DNA from: a virus
Taxonomy: Duplodnaviria; Caudoviricetes
Virus record (IMG/VR): IMGVR_UViG_3300017971_000310
Coordinates: 1 to 60,228 of that record
Reading direction: 5' to 3' (one strand)
DNA: 60,228 bases
The notes beneath the pieces are model-generated. The model was not told the origin of the DNA and searched no databases. It saw only the letters and a program-made list of their open reading frames with translations. Positions 10,867 to 60,052 of the stretch are shown here, piece by piece. Every line of letters starts with the position of its first letter. The first letter of the stretch is position 1. The translations under genes and the position numbers were made by a program.

Positions 10867-11514
10867 ATGGCTAAAATCTGGATTCGATGTCTTACTATAG
10901 TCAGGTCAACCGATCAACATGGCAGGCCCTCAGTCTACCATCCTGGGGATTGGGCCAAGGTTGGCAAACATGAGGCCCGTCAATTAGTTGCACAGGGAAG
11001 CGCTGAAATACCTAATGTGCAGACTAGGCAGACTGCGTATGATTGGTACGATTGCGGGGTAGTTCTTAGGGGGAATACGGCTCCTGGACGTGCTGCCCTG
11101 GAGAAGCATTATCCTGGGCTAAACGTCACAAATGGTGGATTAGATCTAACATACTCTAGAAATCTACTATGGGATGCCACATCAAAAATGAATATGCGCT
11201 TCTTACCCGTTGGGTACGAACGGATGGTTAATGGCTGGCAGATGGCTGTGCCTCTAGTGGACTATGACCTATTAGCCACAGATATCGGTACAGAGGAGGA
11301 ACGGGCTTATACGAAATCTATAATACGGGATTTGCGTGTACCAGTGTACGACACGAATATTATATTTGCTGTAAGATGTAATGATGTCCAGGCTTGGTTA
11401 GATAGTTGGAAACAGGAACAGAAGAAGGGTGGGGATATACGTCTATCGTTCTTACGGGCGTTATATATAACTAAGCCAATCATATGTGCGTTGCCGGTGA
11501 CTTGGAAACAATGA
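10867..11514 (+). CDS. small head-associated-type domain fused to degenerate GT-A fold domain
   Basis: C-terminal half aligns by eye with 12763..13362 (GW, EEER.T, W, LRAL) but has DAT in place of DAD. Confidence 0.55.
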   Translation: MAKIWIRCLTIVRSTDQHGRPSVYHPGDWAKVGKHEARQLVAQGSAEIPNVQTRQTAYDWYDCGVVLRGNTAPGRAALEKHYPGLNVTNGGLDLTYSRNLLWDATSKMNMRFLPVGYERMVNGWQMAVPLVDYDLLATDIGTEEERAYTKSIIRDLRVPVYDTNIIFAVRCNDVQAWLDSWKQEQKKGGDIRLSFLRALYITKPIICALPVTWKQ

Positions 11515-39018: not shown

Positions 39019-39756
39019 TCAGAAGTCATCTAATCCTTCACATGCGCCAAGCAGCCAAGCGTCGCATTTCCTATTCCACGCCATACACGCCTCCCGGTTA
39101 TGACGGCCAGGGAATTCTGCCCTAGTCTTAAGTTCGTGCCTCAATGTTAAAATCCTATCCTCATATTCCGATACCTGCTGTGGAGTGCGTGTTGTTGAAT
39201 ACCAGTATATATCTCCGGTGTCTTTGACGCCCACGCAGAAGGCCACATTATGGCATCCTGTTAACCAGGCGTATCCTGTTAGCTGATCGCTCAATTCGAC
39301 ATCCCTGTCTTCGTATGGTCTACTGGCCGTCTTCCAATCAATAACAGTTCTTACACCATCGACCATGCCAATGCAATCCACCTTCCCGACATAATGATCG
39401 TTAGCCATCATCTGCTCACTGATTACTGGCTCGAACTTCAGCTGCTGTAATTTCTGGTCAAAGTTGTCAATCAAGCGACTCCCAATAGCTATCCAATACT
39501 CCGGGTTCGGCCCCTTGCCTTCTCCCTCCCTATAGGATTTTTCAAAAACCTGCTTAGCCATTACGGCAGGATATTCTTCCTCTTTCCATCCGTGGCACAG
39601 TGCCTCCATCCCATCGTGAAGGGCGATGCCAAAACACAGGGGCTGAGGTTTCTCCTCCATCCTGATTTTTAATATGTAACTAATGTACCAAAGTTTCGGA
39701 CATTGCTGATACATGCTAACTTGCGTATTCGATAATTTGCCTATTTGACGATCCAT
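39019..39756 (-). CDS. PD-(D/E)XK nuclease (RecB/Cas4-like exonuclease)
   Basis: YQQCP, FGIALH, GKVD, IDWKT, QLTGY, C-terminal Cys cluster. Confidence 0.85.
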   Translation of the reverse strand: MDRQIGKLSNTQVSMYQQCPKLWYISYILKIRMEEKPQPLCFGIALHDGMEALCHGWKEEEYPAVMAKQVFEKSYREGEGKGPNPEYWIAIGSRLIDNFDQKLQQLKFEPVISEQMMANDHYVGKVDCIGMVDGVRTVIDWKTASRPYEDRDVELSDQLTGYAWLTGCHNVAFCVGVKDTGDIYWYSTTRTPQQVSEYEDRILTLRHELKTRAEFPGRHNREACMAWNRKCDAWLLGACEGLDDF

Positions 39757-40349
39757 CTAATAACCTCAAAGCTTTCTGCGTAGTCCCATCCCATCTGCGC
39801 GCCTCTGACACGTGCCAAGGACCTTATAAGATCTCCCTGCATATACGGCCGGTCCTTCTGGCTTTCAAAATACTCTAGGGCGCTTGTCTTAAGCGCCACA
39901 TCCGGTTCCTCTAGTTGTATGAACCCAGCAGCCTCAAAGTCTATGTTATTCCAGGGGAGCTCATAACCTAATATGCACGTATGCTTAAATGCACGCATAG
40001 CCTCCCTAGTTACAGTAGCATGGTCTTGGTGTATATCGAACGTATTGGGAGTCAACACAATATCTACCTGCCCACGCATTTCAACCAAATTCTCTAGAAT
40101 GCCTTGGCGTTGACGTGGGAAGTCCCTAGTGGGGTAACGATAGATTTTTATATTGTTGACAGGAATTCCTAGAACATGGGCAGCCTTAGTCACCTCTGCT
40201 GTTGCTACTGCTGGGGCTATAGTCTGTGTAGAAAGAGAGAATACAGTATAGTAAATCTCATCCCCCCTGCCTATAAAATATGGTATGCTACCTCCAGCCC
40301 CCAAGATACCGTCATCTATGTGAGGGCTGAGGACCAATATACGTCTCAT
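39741..40349 (-). CDS. PIG-L/LmbE family N-deacetylase
   Basis: LVLSPHIDD..LGAGG, DIHQDH, YELPWN, AESF. Confidence 0.88.
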   Translation of the reverse strand: MRRILVLSPHIDDGILGAGGSIPYFIGRGDEIYYTVFSLSTQTIAPAVATAEVTKAAHVLGIPVNNIKIYRYPTRDFPRQRQGILENLVEMRGQVDIVLTPNTFDIHQDHATVTREAMRAFKHTCILGYELPWNNIDFEAAGFIQLEEPDVALKTSALEYFESQKDRPYMQGDLIRSLARVRGAQMGWDYAESFEVIRWIVK

Positions 40350-40899
40350 GAGCCTCCTTCTCTGTAATGATCAGCTCGCTCTGTTGTCCAGTTTCAATAA
40401 ATCGTTCTATAGCATTGGTAGCTGCTGCTGCTGTTAATCTCAGTATCCTTGCACCTAATAGATGGGTACATACTGGGTTATTTTCCACTTCCTCTTGTGG
40501 CATAGGATATCTGTTGTTCCACGCTATTAGCCCAACCCTATCCACAGACACCCCAATGTGTATAGTCGACCGTAGAGGGGATTGTGTAAATCCCCTAGCA
40601 GCAGGATTATCAAATGTATCTACTACTAATGGTTCCCCATCCTGTGCCGGCAGATACCATCGTATATTTCTTTCTACCCGCACAAATATAGGGTTGGTTC
40701 TTCTACTATTCTTAAGATATAGCATTTCCGCCAATGTCTGAACTTTGGTCATCCCAATGTGTACTCTACTATAAGCAGATGTCCCAATGTTCTCTTCTCC
40801 AACCCTATCGTTATCGATTAGATGTAGGGTGTGATCCCCGACCAGGTGCATAGCTATTTGACTACCCAATGCTCCGCAGCCAGCCAGAACGATATCCAT
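40312..40899 (-). CDS. ThiF/E1-like adenylyltransferase
   Basis: GCGALGS, IDNDRV..EN, K, VVDTFDN..AR, distal Cys (NPVC). Confidence 0.85.
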   Translation of the reverse strand: MDIVLAGCGALGSQIAMHLVGDHTLHLIDNDRVGEENIGTSAYSRVHIGMTKVQTLAEMLYLKNSRRTNPIFVRVERNIRWYLPAQDGEPLVVDTFDNPAARGFTQSPLRSTIHIGVSVDRVGLIAWNNRYPMPQEEVENNPVCTHLLGARILRLTAAAATNAIERFIETGQQSELIITEKEAHETYIGPQPSHR

Positions 40900-41154
40900 T
40901 CACTGTCCTTTCATAGGGACACAGCTTATGCCCCTAGCATACACTATGTAGCATATATTATTATGGTCTACATCTATAAACCTGGTCACTTGATAGGTCT
41001 GCTGTGGCCCATCCACCCAAAATACCTCACCCTGTATAATGGGTTCTCGAATAACCTCGACAGGCGTAACTAGCTTTGTGCTAGGAGCACAAGAGTTTAT
41101 TATAATGCTTACAATAACTATAAGCACAAGACAAAAGAATATTCTTATATCCAT
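40900..41154 (-). CDS. small lipoprotein-like/membrane protein
   Basis: Hydrophobic N-terminus ending INSC; two more Cys near the C-terminus. Confidence 0.6.
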   Translation of the reverse strand: MDIRIFFCLVLIVIVSIIINSCAPSTKLVTPVEVIREPIIQGEVFWVDGPQQTYQVTRFIDVDHNNICYIVYARGISCVPMKGQ

Positions 41155-41993
41155 AGCCCCTCATCCATATCGAATCTGTGTAGTTCTCGAGCACGTTGCA
41201 TAGCCAAGGCTAGTGAAGCTAAGTCATGCTCGCTGTCTGTTCCTTCCATACAGATACCAGCGGAGATTGCCATACCACTTCTAGATATAGTGGCGGTATG
41301 TCTGGCCCCACCATATTCCCAGGTCACATTATACCCGTCGCTGGCATTGGACCAATCTAACAGCTCTGCTCCAACTAAAGACAGCTGATAACGAAACTCC
41401 CCCTCTACGCGTTTACGGTCTTCTAGAAGAGCCTGTTGTTGCCTAGCCTGCTCCCTGACTTTACGTAAAGTGTCTAGTCTATCTTGTACCAATGCTCTGG
41501 CCCGGAGCATATCAGGAGTGGTTTCTCTGGACAGAAACGGATATAGATGAAACAACAAGTTCCCACCCAGTACACCAGCAGACACAGGGTCCAATGGGAC
41601 TGGCTGCCCACGAACTAGATGTATCGGTCTTGGGATGGCTTCTTTCCAGCCCTTTTGTGAGGCATCACTAGCATTGTAGGGAGTACATAACCATGTAGTA
41701 TCAGAGAGGGGATACAACATTATAACGTTTATGTGCCGCAAGGAGACTAGAAAACGCAGATACTCTTCTGGTGTTGCCTCCCGATCTAGCTCAGCCATGT
41801 GTTCAAGGGTGGGATGTGCGTCCATTTTCCACCAGCCCACAGGCCAGTTTCGTACCCTAAATGTATAGGGAAACCCATCCTGGACAATGAATACCTCTGT
41901 AGTTTCACTGTCCAGAATGGGAGCTATAAAGGGACGGAGCGTATGCTGTTCTAGCCTATTCAGTGCCTCAAATAAACTAGCCCCACTAGACAT
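41145..41993 (-). CDS. hypothetical protein, possible E2-like C-terminal domain
   Basis: ATG 41993 after SD-like AGAGG; C-terminal RHT...SAGICMEG with a Cys in a GIC[LM] context; E2 assignment is inference. Confidence 0.55.
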   Translation of the reverse strand: MSSGASLFEALNRLEQHTLRPFIAPILDSETTEVFIVQDGFPYTFRVRNWPVGWWKMDAHPTLEHMAELDREATPEEYLRFLVSLRHINVIMLYPLSDTTWLCTPYNASDASQKGWKEAIPRPIHLVRGQPVPLDPVSAGVLGGNLLFHLYPFLSRETTPDMLRARALVQDRLDTLRKVREQARQQQALLEDRKRVEGEFRYQLSLVGAELLDWSNASDGYNVTWEYGGARHTATISRSGMAISAGICMEGTDSEHDLASLALAMQRARELHRFDMDEGLWI

Positions 41994-44050: not shown

Positions 44051-44081
44051 AATAAGAAACAGCCCCGGTTTCCCGGGGCTG
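44051..44081 (-). terminator. intrinsic terminator closing the ncRNA cluster
   Basis: CAGCCCCGG-GAAA-CCGGGGCTG followed by TTTCTTATT. Confidence 0.85.
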
Positions 44082-44089
44082 CCCATCGC

Positions 44090-44171
44090 CCCAGACCATT
44101 GTCAATAATAATCCACTGCACCGTGAACGCCACACACAATAACTATCGGAGGAGCTTTATGTAGGTCTGGG
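44090..44171 (-). ncRNA. possible fifth structured RNA (E)
   Basis: Closed by an 8-bp stem CCCAGACC/GGTCTGGG; inside the promoter-terminator unit; no tRNA arms recognised. Confidence 0.35.
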
Positions 44172-44184
44172 TTGATCCTTTCTA

Positions 44185-44314
44185 GTGACGTGGTGGCGTG
44201 TAGTGCTTTATTTGTTTCTCTCAGTGGGAATTGAACCCACAACCTATGGTTCCTAATACCATAGCTCTTACATTGAGCTATAAAGATTGTGAGCACCAAA
44301 CTAAGTCACGTCGC
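44185..44314 (-). ncRNA. tRNA-mimic RNA A (cloverleaf on an extended closing stem; Y-RNA-like)
   Basis: D arm GCTC/GAGC, anticodon-like arm ATGGT-ATTAGGA-ACCAT, T arm GTGGG-TTCAATT-CCCAC; outer helices GGTGCT/AGCACT and GACGTG/CACGTC. Confidence 0.75.
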
Positions 44315-44326
44315 GTTTTCTTATAC

Positions 44327-44456
44327 AATAGCGTAGTAGCCAACAGAACAATTTTCTATACTCGATGGGACTCGAACCCATACTAACGCCATTCCAGGGC
44401 GTTGCCTTTTCCGATTTGGCAACAAGTGTGTGTGTTCCATTCAAAGCCACGCTATT
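44327..44456 (-). ncRNA. tRNA-mimic RNA B (cloverleaf on an extended closing stem; Y-RNA-like)
   Basis: D arm GCC/GGC, arm ACGCC-CTGGAAT-GGCGT, T arm ATGGG-TTCGAGT-CCCAT; outer helices GGAACA/TGTTCT and AATAGCGT/ACGCTATT. Confidence 0.78.
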
Positions 44457-44469
44457 CTATTGTTAAAGG

Positions 44470-44582
44470 AGGGCCGGGCTGGAATCGAACCAGCAAAAGT
44501 TTGTGAATACACATAGTAAGTCACGAAACCGTGTTAGCCTAGGGTATTGTTTCAAACGAGTATAACCACATATACCCGGCCC
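44470..44582 (-). ncRNA. tRNA-mimic RNA C (anticodon arm replaced by long bulged hairpin)
   Basis: Acceptor GGGCCGG/CCGGCCC, D-like GTATA/TATAC, T arm GCTGG-TTCGATT-CCAGC, long arm GTTTG...CAAAC capped CACG-GTTT-CGTG. Confidence 0.78.
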
Positions 44583-44687
44583 TGGCGGGGAGGCGGGCTA
44601 TTAACCCACAAGTTTGTGGACATCGTGAAAAGCCGCGTAACCGCAGTAGCCCAAGAGGTCTTCTAAACAGCACTAATGTGCCTCCCC
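44583..44687 (-). ncRNA. tRNA-mimic RNA D (long bulged arm, encoded CCA end)
   Basis: Acceptor GGGGAG/CTCCCC + GCCA, D-like GCAC/GTGC, T-like GTGGG-TTAATAG-CCCGC, long arm capped TGCG-GTTA-CGCG. Confidence 0.75.
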
Positions 44688-44714
44688 CATGTAAAGGTTC
44701 CCCAATACACTTAC

Positions 44715-44742
44715 ATTATACCACAGGTTCCGGTCTTGTAAA
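44715..44742 (-). promoter_or_regulatory. sigma70-type promoter, phage consensus copy 3, driving the ncRNA cluster
   Basis: TTTACA-16 nt-TATAAT with TG extension. Confidence 0.8.
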
Positions 44743-44750
44743 CTAAAATT

Positions 44751-45326
44751 CTACCTCAAATGCCCGATAAAGCTAAGACTACTTTTCCCATGGAGGTATT
44801 GCCAGAGCCCATCATAGTCCAATACCTCTTGCTTACAGAACGTAGTTGGTCCTATAGCCCCCTTCTTCTTGTTACATCGTTTACAGGCTGAGATATAATT
44901 AGACAAGTCATTATCCCCACCCATTTCTAGGGGTATGAAATGGTCCACTGTCATTTGGACGTCTCCCATTTTAGCCCCGCAGTATAAGCACTGAAACCCA
45001 TCCCTGGCCCAGACTTTCTGTTGAATGGCCCCACTAATCGCATACTGCTGTTTACGAACTATGGCTTTGGGGTTCCAGTGTTCATTATCCTTAAAGAATA
45101 CGGGATCATCCGTCTGCTTGAGAATAGCACACCACTCCTCCAGGGTGGGGTCCGCCAGGCAAATATCGTTTGGGACAATTAACTGATTGGCTGTGGGGGA
45201 CATCAATAGTATGTTTTCCCCCTGCCCCTGCAGAAGGATGCCCGATATCTTCAACAGATGTCCAGCATCCTCTATGTATACTGGCCTGTCCGTATTCGGA
45301 TATTTTAACTCGTAGAGTCTACCCAT
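44751..45326 (-). CDS. HNH endonuclease with N-terminal extension
   Basis: RDGFQCLYCG..TVDHFIP..GG.N..SN...ACKRCNKKK; ATG 45326 overlaps the upstream gene end. Confidence 0.88.
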   Translation of the reverse strand: MGRLYELKYPNTDRPVYIEDAGHLLKISGILLQGQGENILLMSPTANQLIVPNDICLADPTLEEWCAILKQTDDPVFFKDNEHWNPKAIVRKQQYAISGAIQQKVWARDGFQCLYCGAKMGDVQMTVDHFIPLEMGGDNDLSNYISACKRCNKKKGAIGPTTFCKQEVLDYDGLWQYLHGKSSLSFIGHLR

Positions 45327-45606
45327 AGGTAAATTCCGCCCCCACCAGAATGACATTGCCCTCCGCTGGACGGCTAACCTTACGTCCCCTCAATGCCCCT
45401 GGTTCCATTACATCGGCCATATGGCGCTCAATTCGTTCTAGCAACTGGTCATCGGGAACCAGCATTGGGTCGTCTGGCATAGCAATGTCGCTGTAAGGAA
45501 ACTCGTGGATTTGGGCATCGGCTCCACGTCCCACAATTACCCGTACAATTGGTCCTGTATCCGTAACGGTGACCTCTGTTTCAAATAGTTCAGTATAGGT
45601 GTCCAT
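45319..45606 (-). CDS. small acidic protein, ubiquitin-like/sulfur-carrier candidate
   Basis: 95 aa, strand-strand-helix-strand-strand pattern, ends ...VILVGAEFTYG; SD AAGGAG; fold assignment is inference. Confidence 0.55.
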   Translation of the reverse strand: MDTYTELFETEVTVTDTGPIVRVIVGRGADAQIHEFPYSDIAMPDDPMLVPDDQLLERIERHMADVMEPGALRGRKVSRPAEGNVILVGAEFTYG

Positions 45607-59608: not shown

Positions 59609-59677
59609 ATATCCCCCTATTAATGTTTTGCCCTGGTTTTCTTAATATAGATTTCTTATACATGGTAGCCTTTAATA

Positions 59678-59749
59678 TGGGCCGCCCCGGATTTGAACCA
59701 GGAACTGTCGGGTTACAGCCGAGTATGATGCCGATTTCACCAGCGACCC
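59678..59749 (-). tRNA. tRNA-Tyr(GTA), short variable loop
   Basis: Acceptor GGGTCGC/GCGGCCC+A, loop CTGTAAC, T arm CCTGG-TTCAAAT-CCGGG. Confidence 0.8.
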
Positions 59750-59754
59750 AGGAG

Positions 59755-59827
59755 TGGATCCGGCAGGGCTCGAACCTGCGACTGACCGTTTATGAGACGG
59801 CTACTCTAACCACTGAGTTACGGATCC
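59755..59827 (-). tRNA. tRNA(CAT), Ile2 or elongator Met
   Basis: Acceptor GGATCCG/CGGATCC+A, loop CTCATAA, T arm GCAGG-TTCGAGC-CCTGC. Confidence 0.9.
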
Positions 59828-59829
59828 AG

Positions 59830-59903
59830 CACTCCCGATGCGATTTGAACGCATAACCCCTGGATTAGAAGTCCAGCGCTCTATCCAATTGAGCTACGGG
59901 AGC
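59830..59903 (-). tRNA. tRNA-Arg(TCT)
   Basis: Acceptor GCTCCCG/CGGGAGT+G, loop CTTCTAA, T arm ATGCG-TTCAAAT-CGCAT. Confidence 0.9.
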
Positions 59904-59908
59904 GTATA

Positions 59909-59979
59909 CGGGCCGGGGAGGACTCGACCCTCCAGCACTGGTTTTGGAGACCAGCCGCTTACCATTAACGAACCGACCC
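59909..59979 (-). tRNA. tRNA-Trp(CCA)
   Basis: Acceptor GGGTCGG/CCGGCCC+G, loop CTCCAAA, T loop GTCGAGT (G in place of T54). Confidence 0.8.
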
Positions 59980-59981
59980 CA

Positions 59982-60052
59982 AGCCCCTATCTGGATTCGA
60001 ACCAGAACCGGGGCAGTACAAATGCCCTGCCCTACCATTAGGCTATAGGGGC
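59982..60052 (-). tRNA. tRNA-Thr(TGT)
   Basis: Acceptor GCCCCTA/TAGGGGC+T, loop TTTGTAC, T arm TCTGG-TTCGAAT-CCAGA. Confidence 0.85.

Follow-up and report, generated by a model that had tools for sequence, protein, structure and literature searches.

A phage operon of tRNA-like RNAs as probable partners of a diverged Ro60-like protein

What are the RNAs resembling transfer RNAs (tRNAs) that a phage encodes one behind another, in a stretch with no credible protein-coding frame? The question is raised by a 60,228-base virus record of the IMG/VR collection (IMGVR_UViG_3300017971_000310; linear, about 72% complete), which is referred to below, at its full length, as the window. Its plus strand carries phage structural genes, and its minus strand includes a replication block with DNA polymerase A, a sliding-clamp-like protein, DnaB, a primase and a PD-(D/E)XK nuclease. 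Between 44742 and 44047, on the minus strand, a promoter and a terminator enclose about 650 nucleotides (nt) that contain four structured RNAs, named D, C, B and A in the order in which they would be transcribed, and a further hairpin, E. A sequence-only reading had described this unit as an operon of tandem tRNA-like RNAs cut from a common precursor. That interpretation proved partly correct; the role of the RNAs, which is suggested by the Ro60-like gene lying downstream, was absent from it. Ro60 and its Y RNAs form an RNA-surveillance particle that is conserved from bacteria to humans. Because the RNAs are placed just before a Ro60-like gene, they are read here as its partners: with a probability of about three in four, the unit is a dedicated operon for four, possibly five, Y-RNA-like partners of the phage's own Ro60-like protein.

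The unit and its RNAs

The promoter anticipated by the sequence-only reading was found at the same position and is near-consensus (Table 1). Promoter-like sites are common in this region, with 3 in the 1.8 kilobases (kb) scanned against 3.1 expected from shuffles. Sites resembling TTGAC..TAnAAT also precede the first RNA in L003, L004, L006, L010, L015, L018 and L020, which belong to the related loci (L numbers) described in the next section. The GAAA-loop terminator, formerly placed at 44051–44081, is likewise present, with its stem at 44084–44057, and similar hairpins follow the RNA array in L004–L007, L015, L018, L019 and L020; sites and hairpins alike were read from the sequence. Since related loci have their own promoter-like site and terminator hairpin, the promoter-to-terminator organisation holds. 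The longest open reading frame (ORF) lying wholly inside the unit encodes 65 amino acids (aa), in agreement with the earlier statement that no credible ORF is present. Folding of the whole stretch gives five closed domains, namely D, C, B, A and hairpin E.

RNAs A to D have in common a module, here termed the handle, which comprises a clamp helix CGUG:YACG, an internal loop (roughly 4x4 to 5x5), a second helix of 6–7 base pairs (bp) and the strand (Y)ACAAAC, the clamp core being extended by freely covarying pairs. Two wirings connect the handle to a tRNA body. For A and B, the handle is made by both RNA ends, the ACAAAC(U)U strand is the 5' strand of an imperfect acceptor stem, and the body is a complete, sealed cloverleaf with an anticodon arm. 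The handle of C and D takes the form of a closed hairpin that follows the D arm, at the anticodon position of an RNA in tRNA order, and the acceptor stem is open, with 7–8 perfect pairs and a free end encoded as UCC (C) or GCCA (D).

The four elements are tRNA-like to different degrees. The claim stands for A and B, which are recognised by both ARAGORN and the Rfam tRNA model, and for C, which has a D arm and a canonical T arm; it is weakest for D, because the T-like hairpin of this RNA is non-canonical. T arms of the GGUUCRAnUCC type together with D arms are present in A, B and C and not in D, and the Rfam tRNA threshold of 29 bits is passed by the A and B cores only, not by C or D. The handle of RNA B leads into an imperfect acceptor stem, a D arm, an anticodon arm (loop CUGGAAU) and a T arm, with no discriminator or CCA; its tRNA core (44357–44429) scores 53.8 bits and is called 'Ser GGA' with one acceptor-stem mismatch. 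RNA A has an acceptor stem with a bulge, a D arm, an anticodon arm (loop AUUAGGA) and a T arm, again without CCA, and its core (44216–44286) scores 50.3 bits as 'Leu UAG'. No transfer-messenger RNA was reported by ARAGORN in the window.

In RNA C, the anticodon arm is replaced by the handle, which runs CACG-GUUU-CGUG, internal loop, second helix, ACAAAC. Its acceptor strand has a perfect 7-bp partner, and among Rfam families it comes closest to tRNA-Sec, scoring 23.2 bits where the threshold is 47. A search with the exact 24-nt pattern covering the T arm and acceptor strand of RNA C brought up only L002 (IMGVR_UViG_3300002307_000121), an unrelated phage; this record was rejected as a homolog, the pattern there belonging to ordinary tRNA-Cys-like genes. 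Between 5400 and 6600, L002 carries two tRNA-Cys-like genes (anticodon GCA) with extended variable regions, and RNA C has the T arm and 3' acceptor strand of these genes with little or no change. This likeness hints that the tRNA body of RNA C may derive from a tRNA-Cys-like ancestor.

RNA D has a variant clamp, CUGCG:CGCGG, followed by ACAAAC, and aligns with the other closed handles in the alignment A4 described below; its nearest look-alike by eye is L010 1884–1990. As the sequence-only reading had noted, its CCA abuts the first G of RNA C, the encoded GCCA ending directly at the 44583|44582 boundary.

Folding energies support the four RNAs, with z-scores of -2.2 to -3.3; the value is -3.1 for RNA A and -3.3 for RNA C, which 0 of 200 shuffles matched in folding equally well. 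For hairpin E, folding support is weak (z -1.25, with 20 of 200 shuffles as good), the covariance model R1 introduced below does not match it, and no homolog of it was identified. Support beyond chance that is stronger than these z-scores comes from covariation in related loci.

The Ro60-like neighbour and recurrence of the arrangement

The Ro60-like gene starts about 220 nt past the terminator, on the same strand as the unit. Its 498-aa product has no match in Pfam or PHROG and 33 metagenomic homologs, one of which (P0002) is 84% identical. The best solved-structure matches of a profile of 32 sequences are Ro60/TROVE proteins: human Ro60 (9nen, 2.5e-7) and the Ro60 of phage phiLo (9l5y/9kop, 2.8e-6), then 1yvp (Xenopus Ro60) and 2nvo (Deinococcus Rsr). 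An AlphaFold model was obtained with a predicted local distance difference test score (pLDDT) of 85.0 and a predicted template-modelling score (pTM) of 0.61. Among the matches listed by Foldseek for this model, the best 11 are all Ro60/TROVE proteins, aligned at full length (E 1.8e-9 to 2e-7; 508–567 aligned columns; template-modelling score, TM, 0.40–0.61) and including 9kop, 9nen, 1yvp, 2nvo and 9l5y, while isolated vWA domains start at E 5e-5, below the Ro60/TROVE rows. The residues of the MIDAS (the metal-ion-dependent adhesion site), D317, S319, T380 and D404, follow the DxSxS...T...D pattern and are invariant among the homologs. According to the model, the 498-aa protein is a very diverged protein with the Ro60 fold, its ring being predicted.

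An alignment-based locus search recovered 2 viral and 17 metagenomic loci, 17 of the 19 with upstream sequence; L016 and L018 represent the same sequence. Eleven of the 17 (L003–L007, L010, L015, L016, L018, L019 and L020) have tRNA-like matches by ARAGORN or Rfam on the same strand, no more than 1 kb upstream. R1, a covariance model for RNAs of the A/B type with 156 positions, gives full-length matches of 69–129 bits in those same 11 loci, upstream of the Ro60-like gene and on its strand, and none in L008, L009, L011–L014, L017 and L021. On the window it matches RNA A at 113 bits and RNA B at 88.1 bits (filters off), both at full length; the default filters missed two seed members, RNA B, which was recovered with the filters off, and L003 3598–3752. 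True tRNAs, namely those of the window's tRNA cluster and of L002, match R1 at its inner positions only (42–49 to 104–118), at no more than 43 bits and with the handle excluded. L002, used as a tRNA-rich control, gave one full-length match of 37 bits (11278–11419), which is an ordinary tRNA behind a promoter.

The arrangement extends to a distant relative. Among 50,697 phage records, the sole relative of the 498-aa protein is a 23%-identical protein in LR756511.1, a 595-kb uncultured phage. In this record, a full-length R1 match that was not part of the seed (96.4 bits, E 1.5e-22) lies 1.1 kb upstream of the homolog, on the same strand, amid further handle-bearing RNAs. Other searches were negative: blastn of the region against the same 50,697 records gave no match, a single-protein locus search in viral contigs found no relative, and the alignment-based search found none in 185,579 prokaryote genomes (bacterial and archaeal contigs). 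The neighbourhood of unit and Ro60-like gene is repeated, in sum, in 11 of 17 related loci and in LR756511.1, and conserved structured RNAs are genetically coupled to a Ro60-fold protein across deep divergence.

The related loci contain the same two RNA forms. The open form is represented by 13 RNAs in 9 loci, in addition to RNA C; in all 14, the T arm is followed by a strand with a perfect 7-pair partner 85–125 nt upstream, and the 3' end is NCC in 10, CCA in 1 and ACA or ACU in 3. Nearly all RNA-bearing loci have at least one open form with a free NCC(A) and one sealed cloverleaf with a variable anticodon. Many long open forms carry an extra anticodon-like arm after the handle, and in long open forms (L003–L020, L022) a common purine-rich stretch of some 12 nt (AAAGGUAAAGAC-like) links ACAAAC to this arm. 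A third wiring is found at L006 3052–3196, where one handle strand is followed by the T arm, a closed acceptor hairpin of 7 pairs, the D arm, an anticodon-like arm and the other handle strand, so that the handle lies between the anticodon and T arms, in the place of a long variable arm. The handle also occurs as a hairpin without a tRNA body, at L007 2744–2852 (49.8 bits with R1) and L010 1750–1887.

The structures were assessed by covariation. The sealed forms were aligned with MAFFT (alignment A2, 14 RNAs), and RNAalifold predicted 23 pairs, 20 of them with compensatory change. A manual structure of 29 pairs covers the clamp, the second helix and the D, anticodon and T arms; the acceptor stem and a 2-bp mini-helix of the handle were left out of scoring because MAFFT placed them inconsistently. 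In this structure, 86.8% of cells are paired, compared with 65.8% in shuffles and 34–45% when partners are slid, and 24 of the 29 pairs change on both sides. On each of five measures, the observed value was reached by 0 of 500 shuffles. The closed handles (alignment A4, 15 RNAs, 11 pairs) have 80.7% of cells paired, against 63.7% shuffled and 25–42% slid. For percentage paired, compensatory cells and covariation score, 0 of 500 shuffles reached the observed value; for the two counting measures, 27 and 28 of 500 did. A4 includes L004a, L019a and L019b, which are misaligned at the clamp yet were counted, and L004b, having no second helix, was excluded beforehand. In the acceptor and T arms of the open form, compensatory change occurs in 11 of 13 pairs. 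Covariation in the aligned sequences thus supports both the sealed and the closed-handle forms, and helices that covary in related loci back the boundaries of the RNAs and, with them, the earlier description of a dedicated non-coding unit with several separate RNAs.

Table 1. Positions of the features discussed, in the window unless another record is named.
Feature	Position	Strand	Description
Sigma-70-type promoter	44742–44715	-	TTTACA-16 nt-TGnTATAAT; 11 of 12 hexamer matches; extended -10 TG
RNA D	44688–44583	-	Open-ended; 8-bp acceptor stem, encoded GCCA, closed handle hairpin, non-canonical T-like hairpin
RNA C	44582–44468	-	Open-ended; 8-bp acceptor stem, D arm, handle hairpin, canonical T arm, UCC tail
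RNA B	about 44460–44323	-	Sealed cloverleaf; handle from both RNA ends (AAUAGCGUG : CUACGCUAUU)
RNA A	44314–44185	-	Sealed cloverleaf; handle GACGUG:CACGUC plus UGGUGCU:AGCACUA
Hairpin E	about 44177–44085	-	8-bp GC-rich stem CCCAGACC:GGUCUGGG around about 70 nt, between RNA A and the terminator
Intrinsic terminator-like hairpin	44084–44047	-	Stem 44084–44057 with 12 pairs, 8 of them G-C; GAAA loop; interrupted U tract
Ro60-like protein, 498 aa	42329–43825	-	Alpha-helical ring and vWA domain with MIDAS motif (predicted model)
ThiF/E1-like gene	40312–40899	-	
ThiF/E1-like gene, G001	40892–41413		
ThiF/E1-like gene, G002	63559–63879		
ThiF/E1-like gene, LR756511.1	280703–281230		
95-aa ORF	45319–45606		
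HNH nuclease gene	44751–45356		
PIG-L-like deacetylase gene	39741–40349		
Ordinary tRNA cluster	59677–60052	-	Five genes (Thr, Trp, Arg, Met, Tyr), 50–69 bits

What the RNAs are likely to do

Known Ro60 systems provide the frame for interpreting the unit. According to Chen et al. 2014 (PMC4201824), 254 bacteria and 22 phages have RNAs of the YrlA type on the strand of their Ro60 gene and within 4 kb of it; bacterial Y RNAs come from polycistronic precursors, with several per species, and carry tRNA-type modifications; and Mycobacterium smegmatis YrlA is cleaved by RNase P before CCA is added. Wang et al. 2018 (10.1101/312249) describe YrlA as closed at its acceptor loop and as lacking both an anticodon loop and a free CCA, most YrlA RNAs resembling circularly permuted tRNAs. 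In Thermus phage phiLo (PMC12135203), Ro60 binds two upstream phage RNAs of stem-bulge-stem form with CGAA and forms complexes with the host PNPase.

The unit resembles the YrlA/YrlB systems of bacterial (Salmonella, M. smegmatis) and mycobacteriophage Ro60 (RF02553) in having several small RNAs near a Ro60 gene, on the same strand. As in YrlA, a bulged stem module is combined with a tRNA-like module with D and T arms (here in A, B and C), and the related loci include hairpin-only members, as does YrlB. The correspondence extends to strand order: read as a circle, C and D follow YrlA in the sequence handle 3' strand, T arm, acceptor, D arm, handle 5' strand. The 3' strand of the handle runs into the T arm and the 5' strand comes from the D arm, as in the Rsr-binding stem. 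From this equivalence of position with the bulged Rsr-binding stem of YrlA, we infer that the handle is the probable Ro60 binding site.

The differences are equally clear. In YrlA, the acceptor stem-loop is closed and the ends of the RNA lie in the Ro-binding stem, whereas C and D each consist of one piece in tRNA order, their NCC(A) end being free and their handle closed, and A and B carry a complete anticodon arm, with the handle joined through the acceptor stem. The permuted topology of YrlA is present in none of the window's four RNAs; L006 3052–3196 has the permuted order, together with an anticodon-like arm. Unlike the bacterial Ro60/Rsr proteins, the window protein is too diverged for the Pfam TROVE model. 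The Salmonella-type rsr-yrlBA-rtcBA arrangement was ruled out because no RtcB is found in the window.

Two other systems are close in part. The nearest published wiring to A and B is that of Deinococcus radiodurans Yrn1 (PMC4201824), whose two ends form a terminal stem and whose interior allows an anticodon-like arm and a T arm to be drawn; it comes from a polycistronic precursor with a tRNA and Yrn2. As described there, Yrn1 differs in having no full D arm, a 6-nt 'anticodon' loop and a metazoan-like Ro-binding sequence, whereas A and B are complete cloverleaves that pass the tRNA covariance model. Phage phiLo (9KOP, 9L5Y) offers a phage Ro60 with phage partner RNAs just upstream, and its Ro60 is among the best structural matches of the 498-aa model in Foldseek. 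It has two stem-bulge-stem Yrls, and the term 'tRNA-like' is absent from PMC12135203, compared with four or five RNAs here. In the open-access literature, no description of the present RNA wirings was found. A more distant likeness, one of description only, concerns the stable RNA species 1 and 2 of phage T4, which are about 120–140 nt long, have no known function, lie in the tRNA cluster, are co-transcribed with tRNA-like elements and are processed by RNase P; they are not known to have a Ro60 partner.

A mechanism can be proposed on this basis. A single transcript would run from promoter to terminator, and RNase P would cut at the first G of D and of C, so that at the GCCA|G junction one cut would produce both ends. 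Trimming of 3' ends and addition of the terminal A to NCC tails would complete C and D, while other nucleases would release A and B at the base of the clamp helix of their handles. Such processing by RNase P and 3' enzymes is plausible, as acceptor stems of 7–8 bp, the junction GCCA|G and tails ending in NCC all agree with it and YrlA of M. smegmatis offers a precedent. The handles would then load the RNAs onto the Ro60-like ring. The part of the tRNA bodies would be to keep the RNAs stable and to let the particle dock on host proteins that bind tRNA or act in RNA decay. This docking step is modelled on the tethering of Ro60 to PNPase by Y RNAs, which takes place in Deinococcus and in phiLo.

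Several observations weigh against the partner reading. On the RNA side, Rfam YrlA (RF02553), the comparison suggested by the sequence-only reading, gave a negative result: its best match reaches 17.7 bits (E 1.1) against a gathering score of 69 and straddles the boundary of C and B, and no match at E <= 0.1 occurs in the 12 related loci scanned. The published motifs (GGUCCGA; GNCGAAN0-1G of YrlA; CGAA of the phiLo Yrls) are not present, the position-equivalent motif here being CGU(G/A/U)AC...ACAAAC. RNA D has no canonical T loop, and hairpin E is unexplained. In 6 of the 17 loci (L008, L009, L011–L014), no such RNA lies in the 3–4 kb upstream. On the protein side, Pfam TROVE (PF05731) matches neither the 498-aa protein nor any of 32 homologs, vWA_Ro60 (PF25045) matches 3 of the 32, and the profile matches to Ro60 run mainly through the vWA half; consequently, the ring assignment depends on a predicted fold with moderate TM. 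Binding of the RNAs to the protein is suggested by gene neighbourhood and analogy, and the RNAs are presumed from the sequence to be expressed and processed. Finally, as the terminator separates the RNAs from the Ro60-like gene, the two may lack co-expression.

The six RNA-less loci have coding sequence upstream of the Ro60-like gene. In L011, L013 and L014, only a conserved hairpin of about 90 nt was seen by eye directly upstream of that gene, in the last 100 nt or so before it, its terminal helix starting with UUCAUCGUUCU in L011 and with variants in L013 and L014. This hairpin could be the minimal partner RNA of an RNA-less sub-branch.

A broader interpretation goes further than the partner reading and is rather doubtful. 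It holds that the RNAs form a modular 'handle plus cargo' system of a large, undescribed branch of phage Ro60, in which the tRNA look-alikes would be bait or adaptors for host tRNA-directed enzymes. The handle would have been grafted at three places, namely the acceptor end, the position of the anticodon and, as in L006, the interval that separates the anticodon arm from the T arm. Candidate targets would include anticodon nucleases, CCA-adding or repair enzymes and PNPase, and the Ro60-like particle may work together with the ThiF/E1-like gene described below.

It is improbable that the RNAs act as independent tRNA decoys or sponges, for example against anticodon nucleases, with a Ro60-like protein that is unrelated or loosely related to them. 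Phages do counter tRNA-cleaving defences with tRNAs of their own, and here tRNA loop geometry is kept while the triplet varies, and a terminator stands between the RNAs and the protein gene. However, the most conserved part of every RNA is the non-tRNA handle, even in forms that have no tRNA body, which argues for a common binding partner, and the RNAs stay linked to the Ro60-like gene even where protein identity has fallen to 23%. The nucleotides adjacent to the clamp are of interest in this regard, being alike within a locus and different between loci: the loop is ACUU/GCUU in the window, ACCC in L007, ACAC in L015, GCUC in L018 and CCCG in L003 and L020, and in the huge phage LR756511.1 CCC follows a CGUC clamp. 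Such a locus-specific loop fits a common, locus-specific binding partner and speaks against decoys, although recent duplication within the locus would leave the same pattern. A regular expression loosely describing the handle gave 154 matches in 119 kb outside the operon; being non-specific, it was not used as a statistic.

It is very unlikely that A and B, and perhaps C, are working phage tRNAs whose long flanks are processing signals removed later. Their recognition by ARAGORN and the scores of the A and B cores (50–54 bits against a threshold of 29) would be expected, phage tRNA clusters are common and the window itself has an ordinary one (Table 1), and a 7-nt anticodon loop with U33 and mostly a purine at 37 is kept in most copies, with one-column offsets in four rows of the alignment. 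Bacterial decoding sets lack A34 triplets and stop anticodons, and bacterial tRNA-Leu and tRNA-Ser have long variable arms. The 'anticodons' across loci are UAG, GGA, UUA (twice), AAG, AUU, UCG, AGU, UAU, AAC, CUU, GUG, UGU and one unreadable, with ACA in an open form; they include A34 triplets (AAG, AUU, AGU, AAC, ACA) and, in UUA, a stop triplet seen twice. As the loop geometry is kept while the triplet is free, the anticodon arm seems to be retained as a shape and not as a reader. RNAs A ('Leu') and B ('Ser') have no long variable arm, discriminator or CCA, their acceptor stems contain a bulge or a mismatch, and the 5' acceptor strand is a constant ACAAAC(U)U whatever the 'anticodon'. Moreover, the flanks covary as sequence-conserved helices, which simple processing stems would not need, and the RNAs track the Ro60-like gene, not tRNA clusters. 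RNAs A and B are most probably not decoding tRNAs; C and D have a free acceptor end but no anticodon arm.

Scarcely credible is a cis-acting leader or attenuator of the Ro60-like messenger RNA, or a functionless remnant of tRNA genes, for although the region immediately precedes the Ro60-like gene and shares its strand, and the promoter scan detected no additional site from the terminator to the start codon, it holds several discrete RNAs with closed structures of their own and NCC(A) ends, its promoter and terminator recur in related loci, and compensatory changes are kept across loci whose proteins are 23–50% identical, which rules out decay.

Neighbouring genes and significance

In 4 of the 4 records searched, the strand of the Ro60-like gene carries a ThiF/E1-like gene 1.4–4.5 kb further downstream (Table 1). 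The same block of the window also contains a 95-aa ORF, an HNH nuclease gene and a PIG-L-like deacetylase gene, and an HNH nuclease gene is found ahead of the RNA array in the window, as one is in L003 when read by eye. A larger conserved module may include the Ro60-like particle.

The unit bears on the role of the tRNA-like half of bacterial Y RNAs in several ways. The two-module logic of the Y RNAs recurs here, with a handle that differs in sequence and with wirings that lack an earlier description. Two of these are new forms beside a diverged Ro60: an RNA in tRNA order with a free NCC(A), and a complete sealed cloverleaf. The family therefore offers natural permutations with which to probe the tRNA features that a Ro60 particle needs. 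There are also consequences for annotation, as gene callers will mislabel such RNAs as odd tRNAs, including 'suppressor' tRNAs (UUA), and the Ro60-like protein escapes domain databases through divergence. With these loci, Ro60 systems are extended to uncultured phages from sediment and seawater metagenomes, including at least one huge phage.

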